64,000 nucleotides of DNA from an uncultured Clostridium sp. (lineage in GTDB: Bacteria > Bacillota > Clostridia > TANB77 > CAG-508): positions 124 to 64,123 of the forward strand of contig CAMCQH010000005.1 in NCBI GenBank assembly GCA_945877035.1, given 5' to 3'. Below the pieces are notes generated by a model that was given only the letters and a program-made list of their open reading frames with translations, ran no database searches and was not told the origin of the DNA. Positions 4,366 through 19,108 of this stretch are shown piece after piece (position 1 is the stretch's first letter; every line of letters begins with the position of its first letter). Position numbers and translations under genes: made by a program.

Positions 4366-5952
4366 ATGCAGCAAAAAAAAGGTTATGTAAGTTTTGTATT
4401 ACACGCACATTTACCATTCATACATCATCCAGAGAGTGATGATTATTTAGAAGAATCGTGGTTATATGAAGCTATTTCAGAAACATATATACCATTACTT
4501 ACAAATTTTCAAAAATTAGTTGATGAAGGGGTTAATTTTAGAATCACAATGTCTATGACACCACCTCTTCTTTCAATGTTAGATAATAAATTATTACAAA
4601 AAAAATACATAAATTATCTAAAAAAGATGATTGAACTTTCTAAAAAAGAAGTTGTTAGAACTGCTAATGATAAAAGGCTAAATGAATTATCACAATACTA
4701 TCTTGATAGATATTCTAATGATTTACATCTATTTAAAGATGTTTACAACTGCGATATAATCAGCCAATTTAAACATTTTCAAGATATAGGTGTTTTAGAA
4801 ATAATTACATGTGGCGCAACACATGGATATTTTCCTATTTTATATGTTAATGAAAAAACTGTCAAAGCACAAATCGCAGTTGGAGTTCAAACTTATGAAA
4901 GATATTTCGGTAGAAAACCTCGTGGTATTTGGCTACCTGAATGCGGATATGTACCAGAAGCTGATAAATATCTAAAAGAATTTGGAATTGAATATATTAT
5001 TACTGAATCACACGGAATTCTATATGCTAACCCTACTCCTGTTTATGGAACATTTGCACCTATTGTGTCACCTGAAGGTGTTGTAGCATTTGGACGTGAT
5101 ATGGAATCTTCAAGACAAGTTTGGAGTTCAATAGATGGATACCCAGGTGACTTTAATTACAGAGAATTTTATCGTGATATTGGCTATGATGCTGATTATG
5201 ATTATATTAAACCATATATTGCTCATAATGGTGTAAGAGTTCATACTGGAATCAAATATTATAGAATTACTGGAAAAACTGAAAATAAAGATTACTATAA
5301 TTTACAATGGGCAAAAGATTCAGTAGAAAAACAAGCTGGTCATTTCTTAGATTGCAGAACAAAACAAATAAATGATTTAGCTCCAATAATGGACAAGCCA
5401 CCTATTATTTTGTGTCCTTATGATGCAGAACTTTATGGGCATTGGTGGTATGAAGGTCCATATTGGTTATATACATTATTTAAGAAAATTTATTATGATG
5501 ATTGTAGTTTCGAATTAATTACACCATCTGAATATATAGATAAATACCCAGAAATTCAAGTTGCTTCCCCTTGCCGTTCTAGTTGGGGTGCAAATGGTTA
5601 TAGTGAAGTATGGCTTAATCAAACAAATGACTATGTTCATAAACACTTACATGTTGCAGGTGATAGAATGTGTGAACTTACTAATTTATATCCAAATGCA
5701 AAAGGTTTAAAGAAAAAAGCTTTAAATCAGTGTGCTAGAGAATTGCTATTAGCACAAAGCAGTGACTGGTTATTTATTATTACAAATGGTACTATGGTTG
5801 ATTATGCTAAAAAGCGTATTAAAGACCATATTGGTCGTTTTACTAAATTGTATTATCAGATTAAAAATGATGAAATTGATGAAGATTTTTTGAAAGACAT
5901 TTCTAAAAAAGATTGTGTTTTTCCAGATATTGATTATCAAATTTATGGATGA
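4366..5952 (+). CDS. Glycoside hydrolase family 57 protein (1,4-alpha-glucan branching-enzyme type, DUF1957 C-terminus)
   Basis: 528 aa. GYVSFVLHAHLPFIHHPE and CPYDAELYGHWWYEGP motifs are characteristic of GH57 branching-type enzymes. Confidence 0.85.
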   Translation: MQQKKGYVSFVLHAHLPFIHHPESDDYLEESWLYEAISETYIPLLTNFQKLVDEGVNFRITMSMTPPLLSMLDNKLLQKKYINYLKKMIELSKKEVVRTANDKRLNELSQYYLDRYSNDLHLFKDVYNCDIISQFKHFQDIGVLEIITCGATHGYFPILYVNEKTVKAQIAVGVQTYERYFGRKPRGIWLPECGYVPEADKYLKEFGIEYIITESHGILYANPTPVYGTFAPIVSPEGVVAFGRDMESSRQVWSSIDGYPGDFNYREFYRDIGYDADYDYIKPYIAHNGVRVHTGIKYYRITGKTENKDYYNLQWAKDSVEKQAGHFLDCRTKQINDLAPIMDKPPIILCPYDAELYGHWWYEGPYWLYTLFKKIYYDDCSFELITPSEYIDKYPEIQVASPCRSSWGANGYSEVWLNQTNDYVHKHLHVAGDRMCELTNLYPNAKGLKKKALNQCARELLLAQSSDWLFIITNGTMVDYAKKRIKDHIGRFTKLYYQIKNDEIDEDFLKDISKKDCVFPDIDYQIYG

Positions 5953-7135: not shown

Positions 7136-7378
7136 TTACATACTCATATTAATTCCTTTTGATACAACATCTTTCATATTTTCTATTAAATCATCAATTT
7201 CTTTTGGAGTTACAATTAAATTATAATCCTTTGGAATCAAAACTTCTCTAATTTCTTCGTAATTATTTTCCTCTTTTAATTTATTTAAATAATCATTTGA
7301 ATTTGCCTCTTCTTGTAATTTTGTTATAAACAAATCTAAACAGTCATTTACAAGCACTGCTGTTTCTACAACTGTTGG
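7136..7378 (-). pseudogene. gpr: Germination protease gpr, 3-prime fragment (C-terminal ~76 codons) separated from the rest by the ICE
   Basis: Minus-sense reading through the 14-bp core gives PTVVETAVLVNDCLDLFITKL...LIVTPKEIDDLIENMKDVVSKGINMSM. It matches the GPR C-terminus (B. subtilis ...LMVTPKEVD..IEDMANVI..GLN). No start codon or RBS of its own. Confidence 0.85.
7365..7378. repeat. att core, left copy (TCTACAACTGTTGG)
   Basis: Identical to 62401-62414. Contains the palindrome CAAC-T-GTTG. Lies inside gpr codons PTVV. Confidence 0.9.
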
Positions 7379-7449: not shown

Positions 7450-9036
7450 TTACTTTAGCTTTTCAAAAGCCTTTATTCTGTAATATATATCTACCTTTTT
7501 ATCTTCGTGAATTTCAATCCTATCTATAATTTTTGACATTATTTCTTTGGTAGGATTTTCTAATTTCAAGAAATCATTTATTAATTCTTTGTAATCAAAT
7601 GAAAACATTTCTTTTTCTTCTTTTGTAAATTCTCCCAATTTTTCTTCAAGAGATTTTATCTCATCTTTTATCTTTTTTAAACCTTCATTCTGCTTTTCGG
7701 ACATTGATTTAAACATTTCCACTGTAATAATGTCATTTAGTCTATCTTCATATAGTCTTTCTAGGTTTTTTTCAATTTTTATTTTTTTATCGTTTGCTTC
7801 TTTTAAAGTTTTTTCAAGAGTTGCTTTATAATTGTTGTTTTCAACCTTTTGCTTTAATGCTTGTTCTATCTTTTCATCATCCATACAAATTTTGCATAAT
7901 TCTCTTACCTTTTCAACTACCATTAATTCTAGTGCTTCATAATTTAAAGTATGTGGTGTGCATAGTTTTCTTTTCGTATATGCTCTGTATAAATTACATC
8001 CAGTATATGAAAAATTTCTTGCTTTGCTACTTGCAATTCCAATACTACCACCACAATCTGCACATTTTAGCAATCCTGTTAGTAGATACGTCTTTTTTAC
8101 TGTTTTCTTTGCACTTGTATCTAATAATCTCTGTACAGTATAAAAAGTATCTTCATCAATTAAAGGTTCATGTGCATTTTCTATTACAATCCATTGTTCT
8201 TTTGGCAGTTTTACTCTTTGCCTATTTTTATAGCTTATGGTTTGGCTCTTTCCTTGTTCCAGCTTTCCTATATAAACATTATTTCTTAATATTCTTCTTA
8301 TACTGGCAGGATGCCAATATCCATATTGATAAGATAGAGCATTAGTTTGATATTTATTTCTCATCGCTGGAGTTGGGATATGTTCATCTGTAAATATATT
8401 TGCTATTTGTGTTGTACCATATCCATCAATTATCATTTTAAACATTCTTCTTACTAATGGTGCTGTTTCATTATCTATAATTAAATGATGTTTATCATTT
8501 GGATCTTTTTTATATCCTATTGGAGCAGATGTACTTACAAATTGTCCATCTTCTTTTTTTTGTTGAAATACTATCCTAATTTTTTTAGAAATATCTTTCG
8601 CATACATTTCATTTAATATAGATCTAAAAGGTGCTATATCATTTTCTGATGAATTCGTCCTTTCTGTATCTATATTATCAAGTATAGACACATATCTAAC
8701 TCTTTTCATTGGAAAATATTGTTCAACATAGTAACCACTTTGAATATAATCTCTACCCAATCTTGATAAATCTTTAGTAACAACCATATTGATTTTTCCA
8801 TCTTCAATGTCATTAATTAATCTATTGAATGCTGGTCTATCAAATGTAGTTCCTGAAACACCATCATCTACATATTCTCCAGCTAAAGCAAGTTTATTTT
8901 CTTTTAAATATGTCAATAAAATGTTTCTTTGATTTGTGATACTTTCACTTTCAATTACTTTGTCATTGTCCTCTTTTGATAATCTTATATAAATACCAAC
9001 TCTATATAAAGCATTTCTAGTTAAGCCCTCAAACAT
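7450..9036 (-). CDS. Large serine recombinase (resolvase/invertase N-domain, recombinase domain, zinc ribbon, coiled coil)
   Basis: 528 aa. RVGIYIRLSKED..SITNQR..YVDDGVSGTTFDRPAFNRLI..VVTKDLSRLGRDY catalytic domain. LLKCADCGG zinc ribbon. C-terminal coiled coil. Adjacent to the att site. Confidence 0.95.
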   Translation of the reverse strand: MFEGLTRNALYRVGIYIRLSKEDNDKVIESESITNQRNILLTYLKENKLALAGEYVDDGVSGTTFDRPAFNRLINDIEDGKINMVVTKDLSRLGRDYIQSGYYVEQYFPMKRVRYVSILDNIDTERTNSSENDIAPFRSILNEMYAKDISKKIRIVFQQKKEDGQFVSTSAPIGYKKDPNDKHHLIIDNETAPLVRRMFKMIIDGYGTTQIANIFTDEHIPTPAMRNKYQTNALSYQYGYWHPASIRRILRNNVYIGKLEQGKSQTISYKNRQRVKLPKEQWIVIENAHEPLIDEDTFYTVQRLLDTSAKKTVKKTYLLTGLLKCADCGGSIGIASSKARNFSYTGCNLYRAYTKRKLCTPHTLNYEALELMVVEKVRELCKICMDDEKIEQALKQKVENNNYKATLEKTLKEANDKKIKIEKNLERLYEDRLNDIITVEMFKSMSEKQNEGLKKIKDEIKSLEEKLGEFTKEEKEMFSFDYKELINDFLKLENPTKEIMSKIIDRIEIHEDKKVDIYYRIKAFEKLK

Positions 9037-9074
9037 ATCTTTCCTCCTTAGAGGGCTAGAAATCTTACAAAAAT

Positions 9075-9103
9075 ATTATACCATATTTATTGAAAAAATC
9101 CAA
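9075..9103 (-). promoter_or_regulatory. Near-consensus sigmaA promoter upstream of the recombinase gene
   Basis: Minus-sense TTGGAT (9098-9103), 17 bp, TGg-TATAAT (9075-9080, extended -10), about 35 nt before the AAGGAGG RBS and ATG at 9036. Confidence 0.55.
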
Positions 9104-9178
9104 CCCATTTAAAAAAGCTATTAGAAAAATTTTTAAGATTAATTTCTTTTTTCTTATAACTTTTTCCAATAACTATTG

Positions 9179-9340
9179 TTACAATTCTAATTTTTTTCTT
9201 TCAACTGGATTACAGTTGTTTAATATTATTTCTTTCATTACAGCATTTATATCTTTTCCATTTTCATTAAAAAAAACATTCAATTTTATATTCTTTGTGT
9301 AATCTATAATTCTTTGTTCATATAATTTTTTTTCAGTCAT
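9179..9340 (-). CDS. Small ORF (53 aa), possible remnant of a Spo0A-like receiver
   Basis: Below the ORF-track cutoff. AAAGGAGGG RBS then ATG at 9340: MTEKKLYEQRIIDYTKNIKLNVFFNENGKDINAVMKEIILNNCNPVERKKLEL. Shares GKDxxAxxxEI and NPVERKK, and 23 identical nt, with the gene at 12105. Confidence 0.4.
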   Translation of the reverse strand: MTEKKLYEQRIIDYTKNIKLNVFFNENGKDINAVMKEIILNNCNPVERKKLEL

Positions 9341-9457
9341 AAAGTTGACCCTCCTTTTGAAAAATGAATTATATTTATATTATTGTTATTTAATGTAATT
9401 TTATTCATCATTATAAAGGTATAAAATAATTATCATATACTGTTTTTATACTAAATT

Positions 9458-9946
9458 TTATTTAAAATATTCTTCCTCATCTTCACCATCTAATTGTTCT
9501 TTATTTCCTACTCTCATGTAGGTATAATAATCGATTTCGTTATTACTTTTTATATAATTTGTATATTCAGGATAACGAATTTTAATTGCCTCCCAAAAAT
9601 AAGGTGCAAATGAACAACAAAATATTTCGCTAGGAGCATAACTACTAGAAATTTTTTCATTCTCTAAATCATCTTCGCTATCATACATCAGACTATGATT
9701 CCATAAATTAAATGCCATCCTTGTTACTTTTTCAGAAGTACCTGTTTGCCATCCTTTTTGTATAGCATCAAGATTTACTTCACTTTGATTAATATTAAAT
9801 ATTTCTTTAAAATGTTCTCTTGTAGTTTCACAAATTCCCAACGTATATACTAATGATTTGTAATAAACATCTTTCTTACCAAGTTTCGCTAATTCTTCCA
9901 TTTTATTTTCAAAAAAACTTTTATGTTCATCATCTATAAAATTCAT
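9458..9946 (-). CDS. Hypothetical protein (DUF6075-like pattern), acidic C-terminus
   Basis: 162 aa. EHKSFFENKM...YYKSLVYTLGICETTREHF...WQTGTSEKVTRMAFNLWN resembles the recalled DUF6075 pattern. Ends GEDEEEYFK. Confidence 0.5.
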   Translation of the reverse strand: MNFIDDEHKSFFENKMEELAKLGKKDVYYKSLVYTLGICETTREHFKEIFNINQSEVNLDAIQKGWQTGTSEKVTRMAFNLWNHSLMYDSEDDLENEKISSSYAPSEIFCCSFAPYFWEAIKIRYPEYTNYIKSNNEIDYYTYMRVGNKEQLDGEDEEEYFK

Positions 9947-9992
9947 ACTATAAACACCTCATTTATATAATGTACATTTTTCCATTTTTTAA

Positions 9993-10145
9993 TCATTTTT
10001 TATAATTTCTTAAATATCTTAATTGCTCTTCATCTTCTAACATTCTCTCTCTTTCAGATTTATTTATATTTCCTCCAACAATAACTAAATACATTCCTAA
10101 TGCTAATAATACAGATAAAATTATTACAACTAATACAATAAACAT
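9993..10145 (-). CDS. Small membrane protein (50 aa)
   Basis: Below the ORF-track cutoff. TAGGAG RBS then ATG at 10145: MFIVLVVIILSVLLALGMYLVIVGGNINKSERERMLEDEEQLRYLRNYKK. One TM helix. Confidence 0.4.
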   Translation of the reverse strand: MFIVLVVIILSVLLALGMYLVIVGGNINKSERERMLEDEEQLRYLRNYKK

Positions 10146-10162
10146 TTATATCGTCTCCTACA

Positions 10163-10372
10163 CTATGAGTTATTTTTATTTTTTTCTTCAATTATTAATT
10201 TATTTTTTGCATCAACAACATCTTCTTTCATGTAAACATCAAATACTGGATCTAAAAAAATTTCTATATTCTCTAAGTCTGTATTTTCATTATTTGCAGA
10301 ACGTTTCCAGTTACTAAATGCTATTAAAGCATATGCTTTAGCTTGTTCCTTGTTATATAACTTTTCTTCCAA
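10163..10372 (-). CDS. Hypothetical protein (69 aa)
   Basis: ORF tightly packed (2-nt gap) behind 10375-10806. No recognisable motif. Confidence 0.45.
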   Translation of the reverse strand: MEEKLYNKEQAKAYALIAFSNWKRSANNENTDLENIEIFLDPVFDVYMKEDVVDAKNKLIIEEKNKNNS

Positions 10373-10374
10373 TT

Positions 10375-10806
10375 TTATACCTCCACTTTTATAAATTCTG
10401 GTACATCAATGCTTCTCCCTAATTCCTTTCTAAATTCATACCCTTTTCTTTTTTCATTATATGTATAAGCACTCTTGTTCCAGTTTCTATATGCCATATT
10501 GTTTAATCTTTTTCCTTTAGAAAGTTCAGCACTTGCTTGATTATGCATATTTTTTAATATCAAATCATCTACATTCCTTTGAAATTGTTTAACTTTTCTA
10601 TCTGATTTAATATAATTTTTAGTTCTTTCCCTATGTCTTTCTTTATTATTAGAGATTCTATTTTCTTTTTCTTTAGTATATCTTTCGTCTTTCTTTAAGA
10701 CTTGTGAAACCGCACTTTTTGAAATGTTTAGTTTCTCTGCAATATCTTTTGGTATTAATTTGTCTATAAAATACATTTGTATTATAGCTTCTTTACAACT
10801 CTTCAT
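10375..10806 (-). CDS. Small HTH regulator (sigma-70 region-4 / LuxR-like HTH, basic C-terminal half)
   Basis: 143 aa with LIPKDIAEKLNISKSAVSQVLKK helix-turn-helix near the N-terminus. Lies in the recombinase-proximal regulatory block. Confidence 0.55.
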   Translation of the reverse strand: MKSCKEAIIQMYFIDKLIPKDIAEKLNISKSAVSQVLKKDERYTKEKENRISNNKERHRERTKNYIKSDRKVKQFQRNVDDLILKNMHNQASAELSKGKRLNNMAYRNWNKSAYTYNEKRKGYEFRKELGRSIDVPEFIKVEV

Positions 10807-11219
10807 CTGTGCCTCTCTTTCTTTTACTTAACTTTTTGCTAACACTTTAAGAAGTCGGTAAAACTAATGAGCCTTTTTTTCTCATTTTTTCCATATGTTT
10901 TTTTGATTTTAAAATTCTCTTTTTAAAATTAGCAACACGCTTCTTTTGAATTGTTTGAACTTTTTTTCTGTGTAGAATTCTTCTTAATCTCTGATACATT
11001 TTCTTCACTCCTTTCACTTATTATAGTCCTGACTTTTTTTCCAAATTCGGACAAAATTTAAAATTTTTTTATTTTTCTCTATTTTTTGTTAAAGTTTTAT
11101 ATATCTCAATTGTAATTTCTTGTTTTAAATCTTCATCTATATTTCCATTTATTCTGCTATATTTATTTATTAAGTTATCGTATTCATTTATAATTTGCAT
11201 AACTTCATCATCTGTCATA

Positions 11220-11654
11220 TTAAAATTTTTGAACATTATTATTCTCCTCTCCCTTTAGCTTTAAATATTCTTTTTCTATTTTCTTTATAGCTCTGTTCCT
11301 TATCTTTCTAACTGTATCTCCTTTTATATGTAGCAATCTTCCAATTTTTTCATCAGTTGTTTCTTCCCAAAAATACGAAAAAAGCACTAACTTTTCTCTA
11401 TAAGTCAATGCTTTTGAACTTCTTAATAAAAATGGATCACTAAATACTTTTTCCATCTCATAGGCACAAATTTCCCTATCATATTTTTTCTCATAATCAT
11501 TTTCAATATTTTCTTCAGACACAAAAATATTATCATCTAACATATCAATATCATCTTCTAAATATGTATAATTATTTGATTTTAAATAATCACTTCTTGT
11601 TCTTCTTGCTATTGTTACTAATGCTGCTTTCTCCTTCCCATTTAATATATACAA
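11220..11654 (-). CDS. Sigma-70 family-like protein (region 4 HTH)
   Basis: 144 aa. REKLVLFSYFWEETTDEKIGRLLHIKGDTVRKIRNRAIKKIEKE is a region-4-type HTH. A 49-aa ORF (about 11069-11218) follows immediately. Confidence 0.55.
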   Translation of the reverse strand: MYILNGKEKAALVTIARRTRSDYLKSNNYTYLEDDIDMLDDNIFVSEENIENDYEKKYDREICAYEMEKVFSDPFLLRSSKALTYREKLVLFSYFWEETTDEKIGRLLHIKGDTVRKIRNRAIKKIEKEYLKLKGEENNNVQKF

Positions 11655-11882
11655 TGCACTCCCTCTTCTGGGAACTTATGATTTATATTCATAGTTCAAA
11701 AAGGAGTATTATAAATTTAATATTCTTTAAATTTTTCTTTTACATATCTACACCACCTTTACATCAAAATTTTAAAAGTATATTTAACATTTTTCCATTT
11801 GTTTTTTTATTGCTTTTGTAACTCCTTTTAAAACTTTGATATAAAGTTCCCGTGGGCATAATAATATGTTTTTTATAAAATC

Positions 11883-11980
11883 TGCGAAAATGTGGACAAA
11901 AAAAGAAAAATGTGGACAAAAAAAGATTAATATTAAATCAACCTGCTTTGTTTCCACTCTTTTTCGACAAAAATCGACAA
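11883..11980. promoter_or_regulatory. Cluster of 0A-box-like direct repeats in the divergent intergenic region upstream of the Spo0A-like gene
   Basis: TTCGACA at 11963-11969 is the exact reverse complement of the 0A box TGTCGAA. ATCGACA (6/7) lies 10 bp later at 11973-11979. Two 19-nt repeats AAAATGTGGACAAAAAAAG sit at 11887-11905 and 11907-11925 (20-bp period). Confidence 0.45.
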
Positions 11981-12104
11981 ACCCTTATCAATACTGCATT
12001 GTAAGCGATTAAAAAATAGATAAAATTATATTTTTCTATTGAATTTACATAATTTTCATGATATAATAATGGAAAAAATTTGAAATACATTTGTGAGGTA
12101 AGTT

Positions 12105-12836
12105 ATGGTAAATTTACTTATTGGCAATAAGGATACAACTGAGCTTGATATTCTTTACCAAAGACTTGCAAATGATAAAGATTATAGAGTTAATAGTGCT
12201 ACTACTGGAAAAGATACTTTAGCAATGTATCTTGAAATAAATCCTGATATATTAATTTTAGACAATACTTTACCAGATATGCTTGTTGAAGATATTGTAA
12301 ACAGACTATCTGTTAATCCAGTTGAAAGAAAAAAATGCAATACAATTTTAACATTGCCACTAAACTATACTATAAAAATGAATAACTATAGAAAGATCAG
12401 CGAAGTTATATATAAACCTTTTAAAAACAATGAATTAAATAATGTAATAAGTGAAATTGCTATTGATTATAATACTCCTGATTTAGAAATAGGAGAAATT
12501 GATTGGTTATTACAATCATTGAATTTTAATTGTCTTTCTAGCGGATATAGGTATATGATAAAAGCTATTTCATATTGTTACTATAGACCTGATAAACTTG
12601 AATACCTAAATAATGTCTTAAAATATCTTGCATACGAGTTTAACACTACTGAGTCACAGGTAAGAGATTCTTTGAATGCTTCAATAAGACCTTTTAACAA
12701 CTCTAATGAATATAACTGCTCTGATGACTTATTTAAGGCTTTGTATAATCATGGACACAAACTCTCTCTTAAAGACTTTTTAGAAAGAATAGTAATATAC
12801 TTAATTAAAATCAAGAAAAAAGGTAGATTATTCTAA
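12105..12836 (+). CDS. Spo0A-like regulator: degenerate receiver domain plus Spo0A C-terminal DNA-binding domain
   Basis: 243 aa. The C-terminal SSGYRYMIKAISYCYY...LKYLAYEFNTTESQVRDSLNASI parallels Spo0A GYxYLxxAI...IAKxxNTTxSRVERAIRHAI. The receiver keeps ILILD and YKPF but has NK where the acidic DD pair should be. One of only two plus-strand genes in the element; the other is the interrupted XRE gene at 16774-17038. Confidence 0.7.
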   Translation: MVNLLIGNKDTTELDILYQRLANDKDYRVNSATTGKDTLAMYLEINPDILILDNTLPDMLVEDIVNRLSVNPVERKKCNTILTLPLNYTIKMNNYRKISEVIYKPFKNNELNNVISEIAIDYNTPDLEIGEIDWLLQSLNFNCLSSGYRYMIKAISYCYYRPDKLEYLNNVLKYLAYEFNTTESQVRDSLNASIRPFNNSNEYNCSDDLFKALYNHGHKLSLKDFLERIVIYLIKIKKKGRLF

Positions 12837-12864
12837 AATTAATTAGAATTATCTACCTTTTTTT
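12821..12864. terminator. Bidirectional rho-independent terminator between convergent genes
   Basis: aggtagattattc-loop-gaattatctacct hairpin, with an A-run before it and a T-run (12858-12864) after it. Confidence 0.6.
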
Positions 12865-12866
12865 AT

Positions 12867-14054
12867 TTAAAATTGTATTTTTTTATATTCTTTGTAATCT
12901 TCTATAATTCCTGTGTATCTAACTGGATTTTGTTCTCTAATTATAGTATTCATTTTATCCCCTATAATTCTTTTTGCTTCTAAAAAATCTTCTTTTGGAA
13001 TATCAGTAGCAATAAAATTAAATGCTGGTACATTATCATTTAATACTTTTTTAGATTGCTTTATTATATCAAGTCCATTCATATTTGTACCAAAATCGTA
13101 TTTTGCAAATACCATTTCTGGTTTATATTTAATGATTTTATTATATGTATCTTCTGGACTTTTAGATGTTGCAACGATCTCCACATCTTTTATTTCATTT
13201 AATATATTAATAATTTTATCTTTTATATCATCATCATCATAAGCTATAAGAGTTTTAATTTTATTCATCAAAGTATCTTTAACTTTAAAATTAATAATAT
13301 CTTGTTTTAGTGCATTTCCCAAATGTATATCTTTTCCTTCCTGTGTTTGTATAATATCTGCATTAGGAAGAACTACGATGCTTTTTTCAAATTCACTTTG
13401 TTTTTTATATTGAACAATTTTTATATTTTCAAAATTATTTAGTTCTTGTATTTTTCCTTCTAATATGTTTTCTGCAATTTCAAATTGTTCTTTATTTTTC
13501 AATGATTTTTCCCTAATAGGCATAAATTTTAGAAATTTCCATTTTTCTATTTTATAGTTATTTAAAAAATCTCCTAATTCTTTTAACATATTTATATTTT
13601 TATTGCTTACAACCGTATTAATTCCTATTTTTATTGGCTTATTTATTGTTTTATCTAATAATTTCTTTATAATTTCAAAATGATTATCTGCTTTTCCTAA
13701 TTCGAGATTTATACTATTTGAAATTGAATCAATTGATAAATTTATTTCATCTAAGTTATTTAAAATGTCTTCTGAATATTCATTATCATTTTGAGATAAA
13801 TATATTCCATTTGTTACTAACTTGTTATATATTCCTTTTGATTTAGAATATTTTATTAGCTCATTTAGTCTAGGGTAAAGTACAGCTTCTCCTCCAGTCC
13901 AGGTTATATAGTTTATTCCATTTCTAGATAAGTTATCTATTACTTTTATATTTTCCTCATATGATAACTCTTGTATATTTGTAAAGCCAAAACAATATTT
14001 ACACCCTTGATTACATTTTGTAGTTATTTTCCAACATACTTTTTTCTTAATCAT
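12867..14054 (-). CDS. Radical SAM enzyme (viperin-like pattern) fused to a C-terminal CheY-like receiver domain
   Basis: Start moved to M14 (AAGAGGA RBS). CNQGCKYC is the CxxxCxxC cluster. ITWTGGEAVL, LVTNG, LSIDS, GINTVV and EKWKFLKF run colinear with viperin NFSGGEPFL, IVSNG, ISCDS, KINSVI and VRWKVFQ. No SPASM cysteines. The last ~120 aa are KTLIAYDDDD..EIVAT..MVFAKYDF..NGLDII..FIATD (receiver fold). Confidence 0.7.
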   Translation of the reverse strand: MIKKKVCWKITTKCNQGCKYCFGFTNIQELSYEENIKVIDNLSRNGINYITWTGGEAVLYPRLNELIKYSKSKGIYNKLVTNGIYLSQNDNEYSEDILNNLDEINLSIDSISNSINLELGKADNHFEIIKKLLDKTINKPIKIGINTVVSNKNINMLKELGDFLNNYKIEKWKFLKFMPIREKSLKNKEQFEIAENILEGKIQELNNFENIKIVQYKKQSEFEKSIVVLPNADIIQTQEGKDIHLGNALKQDIINFKVKDTLMNKIKTLIAYDDDDIKDKIINILNEIKDVEIVATSKSPEDTYNKIIKYKPEMVFAKYDFGTNMNGLDIIKQSKKVLNDNVPAFNFIATDIPKEDFLEAKRIIGDKMNTIIREQNPVRYTGIIEDYKEYKKIQF

Positions 14055-14212
14055 CAATATCCTCTTTTCATATATAATTTTATATGTTAGCATTATATCT
14101 TGAATTGAGCAAAAAAACTATTCTTAACATTTTAATCCGTTTTAAAAATTATTTAACGAAAAAAAATATCCTATACCTAGGATATTCATCTTTCACAATT
14201 ATATGTAAATTT

Positions 14213-15085
14213 TTATTTTCTTAAATAATCTTTAATAAATTTTTTATCTACTTTTGTAAGTTCACCTTTTAAATACATTAAATTTACCTTTACTTTTGGC
14301 AATTCTATTGGCAATTCTACTTCAAATAATTCTTTATTGTTCAATTCCTTTTTCACAGATTCTTTTATTACATAAGCTATTCCCATATTTTTCTTTACAG
14401 CTTCTACTCTTACTTCAGTTGCATCACTTATAATATCTGCCTTTATATTTACATTATATTTTTGTAAAGTTTCTTTTAATTTTTTTGTTGTTCTTGTATT
14501 TTCAAGATTTAATATACAATTTAAATTTTCTATTTCCTTAATATCTATAATTGTTAAAGGTGCTTTTGAAACAAATATATTATCTATTGTTAATAATTCT
14601 TCTATTTCAATATTATTTTTTTCTATATTTGCATCAGTTATTGCAAAATCAACTTCATGATTTTGTAATAATTCAATCATCTTATTTATATCTACTTCAC
14701 ATATAATAGTTATATTAAGTTCTGGAAATACTTTTTTTGCTTTTTCAATCTTATCCATTAGAAAATAACTCGTAAAATGCGATGGACAGGCAATCTTTAT
14801 ACTTCCACTTGATATATCGTTTTTGTCTTTTGCCAACTTCTCTACAAAATCAAAACTGGAAATTGATTTATTAACTATGTCATACAATTCCTTGCCATCT
14901 TCGGTTAATGTTATTCCTTTACTCTCTCTATTAAATAGTTTTAAACTTAGCTGATTTTCGAGATTAGTTATTTGCATACTAATATTAGCAACAGATAAAT
15001 TTAATTTTTCTGCAGCTTCTGAATAGCTTTTTGATTGAGCAACTTTACAAAATATTCTATACAAATTCAAATTTACATTTGACAT
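14213..15085 (-). CDS. LysR-family transcriptional regulator
   Basis: 290 aa. N-terminal LYRIFCKVAQSKSYSEAAEKLNLSVANISMQITNLENQL wHTH, followed by a substrate-binding-type domain. Confidence 0.9.
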   Translation of the reverse strand: MSNVNLNLYRIFCKVAQSKSYSEAAEKLNLSVANISMQITNLENQLSLKLFNRESKGITLTEDGKELYDIVNKSISSFDFVEKLAKDKNDISSGSIKIACPSHFTSYFLMDKIEKAKKVFPELNITIICEVDINKMIELLQNHEVDFAITDANIEKNNIEIEELLTIDNIFVSKAPLTIIDIKEIENLNCILNLENTRTTKKLKETLQKYNVNIKADIISDATEVRVEAVKKNMGIAYVIKESVKKELNNKELFEVELPIELPKVKVNLMYLKGELTKVDKKFIKDYLRK

Positions 15086-15098
15086 TTATATCACGCTC

Positions 15099-15689
15099 CT
15101 ATAAAATCTTTTTTAATTCTATTTCAGCTTTCTTCACAAAATAATCATTTGTATTTATCGGAATTTGTAGCTCATTTAATTTTTCTTTTAGTTTTTCTGT
15201 AGTATCAAACTCTGGATCATTGTCTATTGTTTCTATCTCAATTAATTTCTTACTATTTTCAATGTCTTTTATTGCTAATTTTAGTTTTCCTTTTCCATAA
15301 ACTATTGCTCTCTCTTTTATTGTCATTAAATTTTTATATCCAAGTGCTTCTATAAATTCTTTTCCCTGTTTTATATCCTGAATTTGACAATCTTTTTTAT
15401 CTTGACTAATAATTATTCCATCAGATGCTATGTTTTTGCTTTTTAAAGTTAACTCAAGTACAGTATAGCTTTTTATAAAATCATCTGGAATAAATTGAGT
15501 AACTTTTCTAATCAATATATATTTTTTTAAAATCTCTCTTATAGATTGTTTCTTTATATCAATATCCTTATTTATATAGTAAATATCTTCTAAATTATAT
15601 TTATCAATTATTGAAAATCCTTTACTTTCTAAAATATTATACATTTCTTGTAGTGAACAACTTATTTTAACTGTTATTTCATTACCCAA
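15099..15689 (-). CDS. CYTH-like domain protein (class IV adenylate cyclase / triphosphate tunnel family)
   Basis: 196 aa. NEITVKIS (ExExK with the second E changed to T), ILIRKV, TIKERAIVY and LIEIET align in order with CyaB-type EVELKF, LREM, EKQRSIY and FAEIAI. Confidence 0.5.
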   Translation of the reverse strand: MGNEITVKISCSLQEMYNILESKGFSIIDKYNLEDIYYINKDIDIKKQSIREILKKYILIRKVTQFIPDDFIKSYTVLELTLKSKNIASDGIIISQDKKDCQIQDIKQGKEFIEALGYKNLMTIKERAIVYGKGKLKLAIKDIENSKKLIEIETIDNDPEFDTTEKLKEKLNELQIPINTNDYFVKKAEIELKKIL

Positions 15690-15813
15690 TTTAATACTCT
15701 CCTTTAAAATATTACCTTACAATTATACCACATTATGTCAATTATATCAATAGTAAAATTCAAATAATTATTGAAAACAACGGTTTTCAGAGTATCACTA
15801 TACAAACTATTCT

Positions 15814-16299
15814 TTATTTTATATTTAATAATCTTTTGAAAAATCCTTCTTTTTTAAATCCATTCTTTGTTTGTTCAATTTTCTCTTTTCCTTTTCTTTC
15901 AATGTTTTCATTTTCAATTTTATTTTCTTCAAAATTATTTATATATTCATTTATGCTTTCAGCACTTATTGGTTTATATACTATATCAAACCCTAATTCT
16001 CGTGCTTTTACTATTAATGAGCTGTCTCTATCAGCTGTAACAAGTATAAATTTAGGCTTTTTCAGTATTGACAAATTTCCTTGTATTTCTTCTATAACCT
16101 CTAAACCTGTCTTTTTAGGCATTTGCATATCTGTAAATACAATATCAGGTTTTAAATTCATAATCTTTATTACTTCATCTTCTCCATCAAAAGCTGTCAA
16201 AACTTTTTCTACTCGTGTATTTTTTGCTATTACTGATTGCATATTTTCAGCTATTACTTTTACATCATCTGCAACAACGATTTTTAACTTTGTTTCCAT
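15814..16299 (-). CDS. Stand-alone response-regulator receiver (Spo0A-receiver-like) with basic tail
   Basis: 161 aa. KIVVADDVKV..PDIVFTDMQMPKKTGLEVIEEI..LKKPKFILVTA..VYKPI has all receiver signature residues. The LKKP-FI-VTA stretch resembles Spo0A. Confidence 0.85.
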   Translation of the reverse strand: METKLKIVVADDVKVIAENMQSVIAKNTRVEKVLTAFDGEDEVIKIMNLKPDIVFTDMQMPKKTGLEVIEEIQGNLSILKKPKFILVTADRDSSLIVKARELGFDIVYKPISAESINEYINNFEENKIENENIERKGKEKIEQTKNGFKKEGFFKRLLNIK

Positions 16300-16322
16300 T
16301 AATATTACCTCCTACAATTATT

Positions 16323-16652
16323 TCAGCTATTTTCACATTCAGTTACCACTTGTTCTATAACTTTAAATTCTTCATTTAATTTTGATAATTTATTTTTTAC
16401 ACTAATTACCGAACCTCTTACTGCACTTGCAGTGCAGCCATATATTTTAGCTATTTTATTCAAATTTTTAGCATCTGGACCAAATTCATTTAATCCATAA
16501 TATAAAATAAACCTTTCTTTTTGTGTTTCCGTTGTTTCATTTAAATTTTCTATTATATGTACTATTCTTTTTTTCTGTTCACTATTAAATTTTGATTTCT
16601 TTGCTAGTTCTATAAATTTATCAATAATTATACTTTTATCTTCAAACTTCAT
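16323..16652 (-). CDS. Small sigma-70 region-4-like HTH protein
   Basis: 109 aa. QKERFILYYGLNEFGPDAKNLNKIAKIYGCTASAVRGSVISVKNKLSKL resembles region 4.2 of sigma factors. Confidence 0.5.
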   Translation of the reverse strand: MKFEDKSIIIDKFIELAKKSKFNSEQKKRIVHIIENLNETTETQKERFILYYGLNEFGPDAKNLNKIAKIYGCTASAVRGSVISVKNKLSKLNEEFKVIEQVVTECENS

Positions 16653-16773
16653 AAAATTTTATTTCCTTTCTTTTCTAAATTTTTCGCTCTATGGCGAACT
16701 GGGTTTGCCAGTAAGCGTAAAAAAATATTATAAAATGTATAAAATTGTTAAAACTATGAAAGGAGTAGAGTTT

Positions 16774-17038
16774 ATGGGAAATATAAGAAAATTAGATGAT
16801 AATGTTAATATAGTTCGGCATTAATTTAAAACGCATTCGTGAAAGCAAAAACTTATCTCAAACAGATTTATGTTGTAAATTAGAATTACTTGGTGTAACT
16901 ATGTTTAAATCTGACATATATGAAATCGAAAATAATAAAAGACTTGTAAAAGATTTTGAATCTAAAGCTCTTTGCATTGCTTTATCAATTTCATTAGATG
17001 AATTATATGCTGATACAGATAAATACTTTGAACACTAA
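16774..17038 (+). pseudogene. XRE-family HTH regulator interrupted by one in-register CGG (16816-16818)
   Basis: ATG at 16774 with GGAG RBS. Zero frame reads MGNIRKLDDNVNIVRH-stop. Omitting C16816 gives ...NIV-G-INLKRIRESKNLSQTDLCCKLELLGV...YADTDKYFEH (87 aa), a canonical Cro/C1 HTH. Divergent from 16323-16652. Confidence 0.7.
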
Positions 17039-17393
17039 TATTATGTTAGTGTTTTTATCAATTCTTATTAACTTATATTTTAATTACTATTATTGACTAT
17101 TTCATTAGTTTTAATAATATACAATTTCTATTATATACATTTTAAATTTGTTCTTTTTCTAATATTTATGAAAACCTCCTTTTTTTCTATTTATCATATC
17201 TGTTACTATTTATTTATTTTTCTATTATTTATTATTATATTTTTTATTTCATTTTCTAAATATGACATCTTCCTATATTATAAGTGTTTCTATAATTTTA
17301 GTCAATCTGTTTAACAGTCATTTTTGTTGCTTTTTTGATGTATCTAAGTAAAGAAAATTTTGCGACATTTTTCTACATTTTTCAACAGATGCA

Positions 17394-17421
17394 CAAAAAA
17401 AGAACTAGTTTTTTCTAGTCC
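17394..17421 (-). terminator. Rho-independent terminator after 17432-17755
   Basis: Minus-sense ggactagaaaaaactagttc hairpin followed by TTTTTTT. Confidence 0.5.
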
Positions 17422-17431
17422 TTCAAATATT

Positions 17432-17755
17432 TTAGCTGTTTACTGCATTGTAAATAGCAATATTAACAAGTTTATAAATAGATAGATGATGTTTATCACT
17501 TAATCTTTCTAATTCTTTGTATGCAGATTCTCTAATATTAAAATTATGTGATTCTGAAATTTCTTTTGCTGATCTATCATAAAGATTTATATTATTTTTT
17601 TCTACCATTTCTATTATTGAAACATTTACTAATTTATTGATAGAGGCTTCATAAATTTCTGATAGTTCTTTTAGTTTTTCATATAAACTTGCATCTATTT
17701 CTATTCTTCTTTTTAATATATTATCTCTTTTCAAAAAATACTTATCAAAAACCAT
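17432..17755 (-). CDS. Tandem ribbon-helix-helix-like small protein
   Basis: Start moved to M14 (AAAGGAG RBS). Two internal copies of the pattern E..YEASINKLVNVSIIEMV / DKHHLSIYKLVNIAIYNAV. Confidence 0.45.
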   Translation of the reverse strand: MVFDKYFLKRDNILKRRIEIDASLYEKLKELSEIYEASINKLVNVSIIEMVEKNNINLYDRSAKEISESHNFNIRESAYKELERLSDKHHLSIYKLVNIAIYNAVNS

Positions 17756-17927
17756 CTTTTTCACTCCTTTTTGCAACATAATTATATTGCACAAAATGGA
17801 GCTTTTTAATTCCTTTACAGTACCATTTTTTGACTGTTTTTATAAACATTTTAAATATGACTGTTAATATTTATTAAGAGAGTAGCATAGTTACTACTCT
17901 CCAAAAAATTGCACAACTTTAAAAAAA

Positions 17928-18287
17928 TCAAATAATTCTTGCTCCAAAAGGTGCTAAGGATAACTTTGCAATTTTGAAAAATTGAAGTCCGAATGGAATT
18001 CCTACTATCGTTATACACCAAAGACAACCAAAAACAAGATTTTCTAATGCCATTGGAATACCAAAAAATATAATCCAAATTATATTAGCAAACAATGAAG
18101 GTACTCCTCCACCATATTCTATATCTTTTCCAAATGGTGCAAATGATAATGATGCAAACTTAAAACATTGTTTGCCATAAGGAATTCCTATTATAGTAAT
18201 ACACCATAAAATTCCAGATATAAGCCATGATAAACCACTTAAGAAACCTCCAAAAATAAACCATAAAACATTACCTAAAAGACTCAT
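17928..18287 (-). CDS. YccF-domain inner membrane protein
   Basis: 119 aa. Duplicated GNVLWFIFGG..W.I.G...C.TIIGIP.G.Q.FK.A.L...PFG motif, typical of the YccF family. Confidence 0.8.
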   Translation of the reverse strand: MSLLGNVLWFIFGGFLSGLSWLISGILWCITIIGIPYGKQCFKFASLSFAPFGKDIEYGGGVPSLFANIIWIIFFGIPMALENLVFGCLWCITIVGIPFGLQFFKIAKLSLAPFGARII

Positions 18288-18406
18288 AATTATTCTCCTT
18301 TTCTGCTTGTTTCAATAAATTATTTGTTGTGCAATTATTTCTACAACAGTTACTAAACTGTTATAATTATAATATTTATTAATATTTTTTTCAACTAACA
18401 ACCTAT

Positions 18407-19108
18407 TTAATAACCATTTTGTTCTATTATTTTATTTGCTTCTTCTTGTGTCAAATACTCATATTCAACCATTTTATTCATTACTTGCTTTTGCCTTTGA
18501 ATTGCTAATTTTGGATTTTTGGTTGGTGCATATACACTTGGAGCATTTGGAATACCTGCTAATAATATACATTCGAAATCTGTCATTTCTTTTAATTCTT
18601 TATTGAAATATCCTCTGCATGCTTCTTTAACAGTATAATATCCATCTCCAAAATAACTTGTGTTCAAATACAATTCCAGTATTTGATCTTTATTATATTC
18701 TTTTTCTATTTCAAAAGCCATAAACACTTCTGCTATTTTTCTTGTAACTTTCTTTTCTTGTGTAAAATAGATATTTTTAGACAACTGTTGTGTTATTGTA
18801 CTGCCACCTTCAACAAAATCCATTGCTTTAACATCATTTACTAATGCTCTGCCTATTGCAATTATATCAATTCCATTGTGTTTATAAAATCTATGATCTT
18901 CGACAGATATAACTGCATTTTTATACATTTCTGGTATTTCGCCAATTTTAGTATAATTTTCTTTTTCTCTTATACTTGTAACTTTTTCTGATAACGGTAT
19001 TTCTTCTAGTGCATTTTTATACATATTATAGCCATTTCCTATCACTAATAGAGTTATGCTTACTGCTACTAATATACCCATAAAAATTACTTTTTTTATT
19101 ACTTTCAT
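18407..19108 (-). CDS. Monofunctional peptidoglycan glycosyltransferase (GT51)
   Basis: 233 aa. N-terminal TM. SVEDHRFYKHNGID and GGSTITQQLSKN GT51 motifs. No transpeptidase domain. Confidence 0.85.
   Translation of the reverse strand: MKVIKKVIFMGILVAVSITLLVIGNGYNMYKNALEEIPLSEKVTSIREKENYTKIGEIPEMYKNAVISVEDHRFYKHNGIDIIAIGRALVNDVKAMDFVEGGSTITQQLSKNIYFTQEKKVTRKIAEVFMAFEIEKEYNKDQILELYLNTSYFGDGYYTVKEACRGYFNKELKEMTDFECILLAGIPNAPSVYAPTKNPKLAIQRQKQVMNKMVEYEYLTQEEANKIIEQNGY

Follow-up and report, generated by a model that had tools for sequence, protein, structure and literature searches.

A Spo0A-derived pseudo-receiver protein and its conserved upstream repeats on a conjugative element inside gpr of an uncultured Clostridium

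We analysed a stretch of 64,000 nt (the window) from contig CAMCQH010000005.1 of an uncultured Clostridium sp., in which an element with conjugation genes interrupts the sporulation gene gpr. On this element an open reading frame (ORF) codes for a protein related to Spo0A, with two classes of repeats upstream of it and a convergent operon with a viperin-like gene on its other side (Table 1). A sequence-only reading of the region had described the protein as a Spo0A paralogue with a crippled receiver, carried by a mobile element that might tap into or override the sporulation decision of its host. Here we describe the protein, its family and its surroundings and weigh what it may do for the element.

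Table 1. Positions of the main features in the window
Feature	Position	Strand	Remarks
Paralogue coding sequence	12105-12836	+	ATG start, 243 amino acids (aa); receiver about 1-120, C-domain about 122-243
Tandem 0A boxes	11963-11979	-	TGTCGAA on the minus strand; plus strand TTCGACA (11963-11969)-AAA-ATCGACA (11973-11979); 10-bp phase
Tandem repeats (B boxes)	11887-11926	+	Two exact 20-nt copies of AAAATGTGGACAAAAAAAGA, 11887-11906 and 11907-11926
Promoter-like site of the paralogue gene	12039-12067	+	TTGAAT-17-(TG)TATAAT, with TG extension, near consensus
Sigma-70 region-4 protein	11220-11654	-	Divergent; Tn916 orf7-like by domain content; opens the run that ends in the recombinase
55-aa HTH_16 protein	11069-11236	-	Tn916 orf8-like by domain content
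Large serine recombinase	7450-9036	-	Resolvase, Recombinase and Zn_ribbon_recom domains
Viperin-like radical-SAM enzyme	12867-14093	-	C-terminal receiver-like domain; convergent; most conserved neighbour of the paralogue
LysR-family regulator	14213-15085	-	Conserved neighbour
CYTH / class IV adenylate-cyclase-like protein, 196 aa	15099-15689	-	Weak match, 30.4 bits vs cut-off 58
Stand-alone canonical receiver, 161 aa	15814-16299	-	Spo0A receiver is the top match in NCBIfam and in the PDB
Second 0A-like array	17361-17387	-	Plus strand TGCGACA-TTT-TTCTACA-TTT-TTCAACA; three 10-bp-phased boxes
Left 14-bp direct repeat, CCAACAGTTGTAGA	7365-7378	-	Junction of element and C-terminal gpr fragment (7136-7357)
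Right 14-bp direct repeat	62401-62414	-	Junction of element and N-terminal part of gpr (to 63179)

A Spo0A-like protein with a degenerate phosphorylation pocket

Residues 135-232 of the protein match the Spo0A_C family of Pfam (PF08769, profile positions 4-103 of 104) with 30.2 bits and an E value of 4.8e-7 at a gathering cut-off of 25 bits, and 26 of 36 relatives match it as well; the Pfam receiver match, 24.7 bits, stays under its cut-off of 30.2. A search of the PDB with the single sequence proved too weak and barely detected the Spo0A C-domain (1FC3, E 0.93), which had to be traced with a profile of the family and a model of the domain alone. A profile of the 122 C-terminal residues of the family finds 1FC3 (E 2e-4) and 1LQ1 (E 9e-4) among PDB sequences, the next match being BsaWI at E 0.048. 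The AlphaFold model of residues 122-243 has a predicted local distance difference test score (pLDDT) of 90.9, and its seven best Foldseek matches are all Spo0A C-domain chains (1LQ1, 1FC3), with template-modelling (TM) scores of 0.66-0.72 by query length and 0.70-0.83 by target length at a root-mean-square deviation of 2.2-3.5 Å; all remaining matches have E values of at least 2. As modelled, the protein has the six-helix effector fold of Spo0A_C.

The family profile aligns with B. subtilis Spo0A collinearly across both domains (hhalign probability 97.8%, E 1e-12); the C-terminal half of the Spo0A sequence used agrees with the sequence of 1LQ1. Framework residues common to both are found at the helix-turn-helix (HTH) position and in the motifs GY.Y, AI and NTT. 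We regard the protein as a Spo0A-derived paralogue; since the NCBIfam equivalog model for Spo0A (TIGR02875) gives 29 bits (E 5.9e-7) against a cut-off of 200, it is no Spo0A orthologue. The paralogue is itself without a match in PADLOC, and in PHROGs it is matched via the receiver only, the C-domain finding no match there. It resembles Spo0A (TIGR02875; 1QMP, 1FC3, 1LQ1) in the order of receiver and Spo0A_C domain, in its collinear homology, in a C-domain fold matched by Spo0A only and in the tandem 10-bp-phased boxes beside its gene. In contrast to Spo0A it has N and K at D10 and D11, an altered recognition helix and a linker about 25 residues shorter, and instead of a chromosomal sporulation locus its gene occupies a mobile element, where its neighbours are recombination and viperin-like genes.

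The full-length AlphaFold model (pLDDT 86) shows a receiver fold, with matches to receiver structures reaching a TM score of 0.86 by target length. Foldseek with this full-length model returned receiver matches only and did not retrieve the Spo0A C-domain. In the profile alignment to B. subtilis Spo0A, N8-K9 stand opposite the acidic pair D10-D11, D53 is kept at the place of the acceptor D56, and K104-P105 correspond to K108-P109, leaving the Spo0A-type phospho-acceptor pocket of acidic pair, Asp, Thr/Ser and Lys incomplete. The family consensus at the acidic-pair site is G-N-K-N, with GNK(N) in the subfamily, and most distant members have AN, AD, GD or SD followed by a non-acidic residue. The acceptor Asp is gone in some members (L035, P0118, P0122). 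Judged from these alignments, the Mg2+-binding acidic pair appears degenerate throughout the family. The receiver is under purifying selection, with a ratio of nonsynonymous to synonymous substitution rates (dN/dS) of about 0.22, and by score it is not specifically Spo0A-like, RitR receivers being among its best profile matches.

With the fold kept and pocket residues lost, the protein belongs to the atypical (pseudo-receiver) response regulators, and the loss of the metal-binding pair makes activity without aspartate phosphorylation probable. RitR (5U8M), HP1043, ChxR and NblR likewise keep a receiver fold that has lost pocket residues, and phosphorylation-independent activity is expected of both. 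Those regulators have OmpR-type or other winged-helix outputs, whereas the output here is Spo0A_C; and the present family, unlike them, mostly keeps the acceptor Asp while losing the metal-binding pair.

The recognition helix differs from that of Spo0A, as had been noticed from the sequence: NTTESQVRDSLNASI aligns to NTTASRVERAIRHAI of Spo0A (family profile and hhalign), and 10 of the 15 aligned positions are changed, all charged ones included. SRVERAIRHAI, the recognition motif that is invariant in true Spo0A, reads SQVRDSLNASI in the paralogue. The residues of this helix that are invariant within the family are R-D, giving a signature V-R-D where Spo0A has V-E-R. These replacements suggest a DNA specificity altered with respect to 0A boxes. 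The C-domain, which carries the invariant residues of the family, has a dN/dS of 0.08-0.33. Some other proteins (P0126 with 849 aa, P0162, P0172, P0176, P0232) contain four to six tandem Spo0A_C-like domains; the helices read from the sequence of P0126 keep E at the position of Spo0A E213 (SIERNIR, NIEHGIR), unlike those of the family in the window.

The family comprises 111 close homologues from metagenomes, nearly all of 243 aa, and all 27 genome loci stem from metagenome-assembled genomes of uncultured Clostridium or Clostridia. Among 1.84 billion representatives the C-domain profile finds 167 clusters at 50% identity, most of them proteins of about 240 aa in which the domain occupies residues 122-243; some, 90-170 aa long, consist of the domain only, a few have repeated domains, and lengths of true Spo0A do not stand out. 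No description of the family, its repeats or its synteny was found in the literature searched. Phages carry spo0A homologues without a receiver (Schwartz et al. 2023, PMC10294663), and PF08769 is enriched in mobile elements of gut Firmicutes (Jiang et al., bioRxiv 10.1101/214213). Spo0A_C on gut mobile elements and phages is thus already known, with no member that has a described mechanism. In both reports, as here, Spo0A_C occurs on mobile elements of gut spore-formers and is presumed to regulate without the phosphorelay. The phage homologues consist of the effector domain only, whereas the paralogue has an N-domain that keeps the receiver fold with a disabled pocket; and the 0A array, the 20-bp repeats and the viperin/LysR synteny described below are absent from both reports (PMC10294663; bioRxiv 10.1101/214213).

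In one subfamily the gene is split at always the same place (L031 6001-6730; L032, identical to L033 and L034, 6001-6730; L035 3457-4189), where the sequence runs ...ATG TCC ACT C GGC TAT... or CCT C GGA with CGG as the 0-frame codon. Skipping the extra C restores the family consensus MSxGY, and the frame downstream of it is under purifying selection (dN/dS 0.08-0.33), so that decayed pseudogenes were rejected as an account of the 160-aa homologues. Products of the 0 frame, 160 aa long, occur commonly in metagenomes (P0099-P0109). The split gene is a candidate for programmed +1 frameshifting or for a gene with two products. The neighbours of one distant member (L041 218-1367), a lysin gene of GH25/LysM type and the gene of a separate protein of 115 aa consisting of Spo0A_C only, suggest that part of the family is found in prophages.

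Repeats and promoter upstream of the gene

The exact 0A box and the 6/7 copy one helical turn away that the sequence-only reading had pointed out are both present, 60 bp upstream of the -35 element, and both are conserved. Exact 0A heptamers occur three times in the window with 1.7 expected, and this count was dropped as an argument; the tandem form, at up to two mismatches, is expected 0.07 times per window. A single exact 0A box is insignificant alone, the tandem form is significant, and its conservation across loci lifts it above chance. Most of the 21 distinct upstream regions of the subfamily contain a 10-bp-phased array of two to three boxes with at least one perfect TTCGACA; its strand never varies, and its distance to the ATG is 126-158 bp. 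The array is retained where the flanking DNA cannot be aligned, and also in the 50%-identical L035, and its central TTCGACA box is essentially invariant across the helix variants of the subfamily. The spacing of 7+3 bp is that of the tandem boxes in 1LQ1, in which two Spo0A C-domains reportedly bind head-to-tail. The central box keeps G2, C4 and G5, the bases of the 0A box that Spo0A specifically contacts (PMC3485338); in the literature searched for base-contacting residues of Spo0A these bases were cited only, and the residues were not given.

The second class of repeats lies farther upstream. Here the tandem repeat with the core GTGGACA seen in the earlier reading is real, its exact unit being 20 nt and not 19. 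The two copies abut a weak minus-strand promoter-like site (11888-11861). GTGGACA repeats have no copy elsewhere in the window, and a regulon inside the element can therefore not be derived from them. Across loci the GTGGACA boxes come in two layouts, either one copy just 5' of the -35 element or an array with a period of 20 bp farther upstream, and the proximal copy is retained in loci without the divergent sigma-like gene. In the subfamily the core of the repeat tracks the helix: TT[EY]SQ occurs with GTGGACA, VPE[ST]R with GGGTACA and V[SP]xSR with GTGTACA. Tandem repeats with a period of 20-21 bp are found in the window and in four of five distant loci, with AAGTGTA, AAGGGGC, AAACGGT and AAGGGTCC as the distant cores. 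Canonical TTCGACA arrays were not found in the five distant loci inspected; L043 carries a pair of TGTCG-type boxes spaced by 10 bp, with an orientation opposite to that of the arrays. A core that is specific to the subfamily within a conserved repeat architecture suggests the operator of a factor encoded by the element itself, and an invariant canonical box suggests a site for the invariant Spo0A of the host.

Between the arrays and the gene, the promoter-like site together with the leader ACATTTGTGAGG is nearly invariant across the family, distant members included. The promoter with its spacer TTGAATTTACATAAT...TGATATAAT stays almost the same at a protein identity of about 25-30% (window 12030-12104; L041-L048), and the spacer may be a binding site itself. 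An Rfam scan of 9000-19000 gave no match, i.e. no riboswitch or known RNA accounts for the long leaders.

The element in gpr and the neighbouring genes

The gpr gene (Peptidase_A25) is universally conserved in spore-formers and expressed in the forespore. In the window it is split into an ORF at 62370-63179 (minus strand), which covers profile positions 3-233, and an ORF at 7136-7357 (minus strand), which covers positions 291-339. Direct repeats of 14 bp mark both junctions, and joining the flanks in silico yields GIPTVVETAVLVNDCLDL, in frame, restoring gpr. The element between the junctions measures 55,036 bp, and the chromosomal flanks hold, besides the split gpr, grpE, hrcA and a sporulation gene of the YtxC family. 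Between the repeats are genes for a MobL relaxase, a TraG/AAA_10 VirB4-like ATPase, a T4SS-DNA_transf coupling protein and a serine recombinase, which make up an integrative and conjugative element, the coupling-protein gene being split over several ORFs with a gap between them (48563-50693). A mobile element inside a sporulation gene, as initially proposed, is therefore indeed present. The translations also reveal a sortase-like protein, a large surface protein and a cytosine-5 methyltransferase gene split over three ORFs (57422-58774), of which L025 has an intact homologue of 420 aa. With its coupling-protein and methyltransferase genes split, the element is, in this copy, possibly in decay or transfer-defective.

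An identical paralogue occurs in many samples beside the same recombinase and gpr fragment with differing genes beyond gpr, which suggests that gpr is targeted site-specifically. SRR16597001 and DRR849459 are examples of samples with the element. The same accessory region is joined to a tyrosine integrase in L004 and is found at several chromosomal sites in L036-L040. A scan of JGI metagenomes for the empty gpr junction (…GGAATACCAACAGTTGTAGAAACAGCAGTG…) found nothing and is uninformative, as the species may be absent there.

On the convergent side the paralogue is followed in 16 genome loci by genes for the radical-SAM/receiver fusion, the LysR-type regulator and the CYTH-like protein. The radical-SAM domain matches the pVip (prokaryotic viperin) model of PADLOC with 127 bits over profile positions 2-235 of 257, and its best NCBIfam match is viperin with 108 bits, under the cut-off of 180. 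A C-terminal receiver-like domain of about 130 aa is atypical for pVip; it is the most conserved piece of the fusion and a separate ORF in some relatives. In L043 a pyrimidine 5'-nucleotidase gene is inserted between the paralogue and the radical-SAM gene. The very distant members P0113, P0116 and P0118 keep the radical-SAM and LysR neighbours and P0123 keeps LysR only; on the opposite side P0113, P0116 and P0123 have genes for a sigma-like protein, a small protein of about 55 aa and a recombinase, replaced in P0118 by genes for a tyrosine integrase and a PemK-like protein. The radical-SAM gene is absent from L046, which keeps the paralogue, the sigma-like module and LysR, and the cassette is kept without adjoining sigma-like or recombinase genes in L019-L025. 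That the paralogue is a fixed partner of the sigma-like gene only was rejected, since several loci keep it without that gene.

The 161-aa receiver of the convergent module has the canonical residues DD, D, T and K, and in NCBIfam it matches the N-terminal half of Spo0A best (58.6 bits). A role as phosphate sink or in partnership with sporulation kinases is conceivable. The second 0A-like array, conserved in L010, L011, L015 and L028, precedes by 56 bp a strong promoter-like site of the minus strand, TTGACT-17-TATAAT (17305-17277), which faces the genes for a 109-aa protein, the receiver, the CYTH-like protein, LysR and pVip. As 0A-type arrays stand at both promoters, the module is bracketed by them. 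In L019 and L024 (around 5284-5515) a 0A-like pair, TTCGACAAATTTCAACA, overlaps the -35 element of a 54-aa gene located between this pair and the paralogue, the product of which has a weak Spo0E-like match (SQKLD, 19.8 bits vs cut-off 23). In the window an XRE-type HTH gene (16775-17038, plus strand) appears frameshifted into ORFs of 39 and 45 aa in different frames, antisense to the long leader 3' of the promoter at 17305-17277. At the position of this broken gene L036 has an intact 81-aa HTH_26 gene.

The arrangement recalls the control region of Tn916 and Tn5397, in which orf9 is divergent from orf7-orf8, followed by the recombinase gene, and in Tn5397 a large serine recombinase replaces Xis/Int. 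Here too a regulator diverges from sigma-like and small HTH genes leading to a recombinase at the end of the element, which as in Tn5397 is a large serine recombinase in place of Xis/Int; the likeness to orf7 and orf8 was judged from the Pfam domains Sigma70_r4 and HTH_16 alone. Where Tn916 has a small HTH repressor as its divergent regulator, the element in the window has a Spo0A_C protein. By synteny the gene has a fixed place in the control region near the recombinase of Tn916-like elements, conjugative or mobilisable, in gut Clostridia.

Candidate regulatory roles of the paralogue

The locus offers a testable layout, in which a pseudo-receiver Spo0A_C family occupies the control region of a conjugative element together with candidate operators specific to its subfamilies. 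We tentatively favour a reading in which the element has its own phosphorylation-independent regulator for the 20-bp repeats and is bound by host Spo0A~P at the 0A array. We infer the independence from phosphorylation, the assignment of each repeat to its protein and the direction of regulation as follows. The paralogue would act without aspartate phosphorylation as the transcription factor of the element, binding the repeats of 20-bp period (the GTGGACA boxes, 11887-11926) and through them controlling its own promoter and/or the divergent operon of sigma-like, HTH and recombinase genes. The tandem 0A array of the subfamily (11963-11979) would be the best candidate for a direct input from host Spo0A~P, by which the switch of the element could read the entry of its host into stationary phase or sporulation. 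In this one subfamily the canonical tandem boxes could thus connect the element to the master developmental regulator of the host. If true, this would be a case of mobile elements of gut spore-formers reading or rewiring the sporulation decision; it could explain how an element can live inside gpr, and it would tie a viperin-like cassette to developmental signalling. Phage phi29 reportedly has 0A boxes through which host Spo0A~P sets its developmental switch. The two share 0A boxes in the control region of a mobile element; phi29 differs in having no Spo0A relative of its own, while the boxes in the window adjoin the paralogue on a conjugative element and are putative binding sites.

Several points weigh against this reading. 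D53 and K104 are kept in most members, and phosphorylation of an unusual kind may be conceivable. P0022, the most widespread relative (L017, L036), retains one perfect 0A box only, and its other boxes keep just GACA, a pattern that a DNA-binding protein different from Spo0A would also fit. Phylogeny confounds the co-variation between helix and repeat core, with about eight lineages inspected, and the syntenic sigma-like, HTH and LysR proteins may be alternative binders of the 20-bp repeats. With an extended -10 promoter near consensus a Spo0A~P activator site is not obviously needed, and the 0A array lies about 95-111 bp 5' of the likely start site, a long distance if activation is to be direct.

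The paralogue could instead be a mimic or competitor of Spo0A that binds its own array and the 0A boxes of the host, activating or blocking the host Spo0A regulon and altering the sporulation decision; no phosphorylation would be needed, and autoregulation would have been inherited from spo0A. The common fold and collinear homology agree with this, as do canonical tandem boxes that stand at a near-fixed distance from the gene whatever lies upstream, and a second 0A-like array at the other promoter of the module is what a module-specific factor would lead one to expect. A similar way of working has been proposed for the receiver-less phage spo0A homologues (PMC10294663). We nevertheless consider a mimic unlikely. 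The recognition helix has lost all charged residues of the Spo0A motif among its 10 changed positions and has the family's own invariant R-D at that site; distant members with related helices have other repeats and no 0A boxes; and the conserved partner genes are not sporulation genes. The same evidence separates the two parts of the original proposal: a takeover of host sporulation by the paralogue is unsupported, whereas tapping into host Spo0A signalling is plausible in view of the 0A arrays, the Spo0A-like stand-alone receiver and the weak Spo0E-like gene of relatives.

Just as doubtful is a role as regulator or partner of a viperin-like defence module, in which control would run from the paralogue to the convergent operon of pVip-receiver, LysR and CYTH-like genes, or the other way. 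The cargo would then be an anti-phage or nucleotide-modifying cassette with the recombination genes merely adjacent, and the receiver-like domain fused to pVip may be the pairing partner of the pseudo-receiver. The paralogue indeed has its tightest and deepest synteny with the radical-SAM/receiver gene and LysR, the PADLOC pVip match is nearly full-length and viperin is the best NCBIfam match, L043 adds the pyrimidine 5'-nucleotidase gene, and L019-L025 keep the cassette apart from the sigma-like and recombinase genes. On the other hand, the 20-bp repeats lie on the divergent side of the gene, away from the pVip operon, the NCBIfam viperin score falls short of its cut-off, and L046 does without the radical-SAM gene.

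A further extension of the favoured reading, with the element's own regulator on the 20-bp repeats, would place the recombinase under sporulation control: Spo0A~P on the 0A array would switch on, or release, the paralogue, which through the 20-bp repeats would act on the divergent operon of sigma-like, HTH and recombinase genes, and as sporulation begins the element would be excised from gpr. We think this improbable. Were it true, excision would be timed to sporulation by a relay from Spo0A to the paralogue, the spore would get an intact germination protease gene, and the element would be the first intervening element known in a forespore-expressed gene. Known intervening elements such as skin in sigK and SPbeta in spsM interrupt genes expressed in the mother cell, and the germ line keeps the element. 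Like skin and SPbeta, the element in the window is a large serine-recombinase element in a sporulation gene, flanked by short direct repeats, and its precise excision restores the frame in silico; in contrast to them it carries conjugation genes and interrupts gpr, which is expressed in the forespore.

Least probable, in our view, is a signalling decoy whose pseudo-receiver heterodimerises with host Spo0A~P or occupies sporulation kinases or phosphatases, with the C-domain secondary: the receiver fold is modelled at high confidence and under purifying selection, the candidate programmed-frameshift subfamily would yield a 160-aa, mostly receiver product and the module also has a Spo0A-receiver-like stand-alone receiver, but the C-domain is at least as constrained and holds the family-invariant residues, the conserved cis repeats beside the gene argue for DNA binding, and the receiver of the paralogue itself is not specifically Spo0A-like by score.

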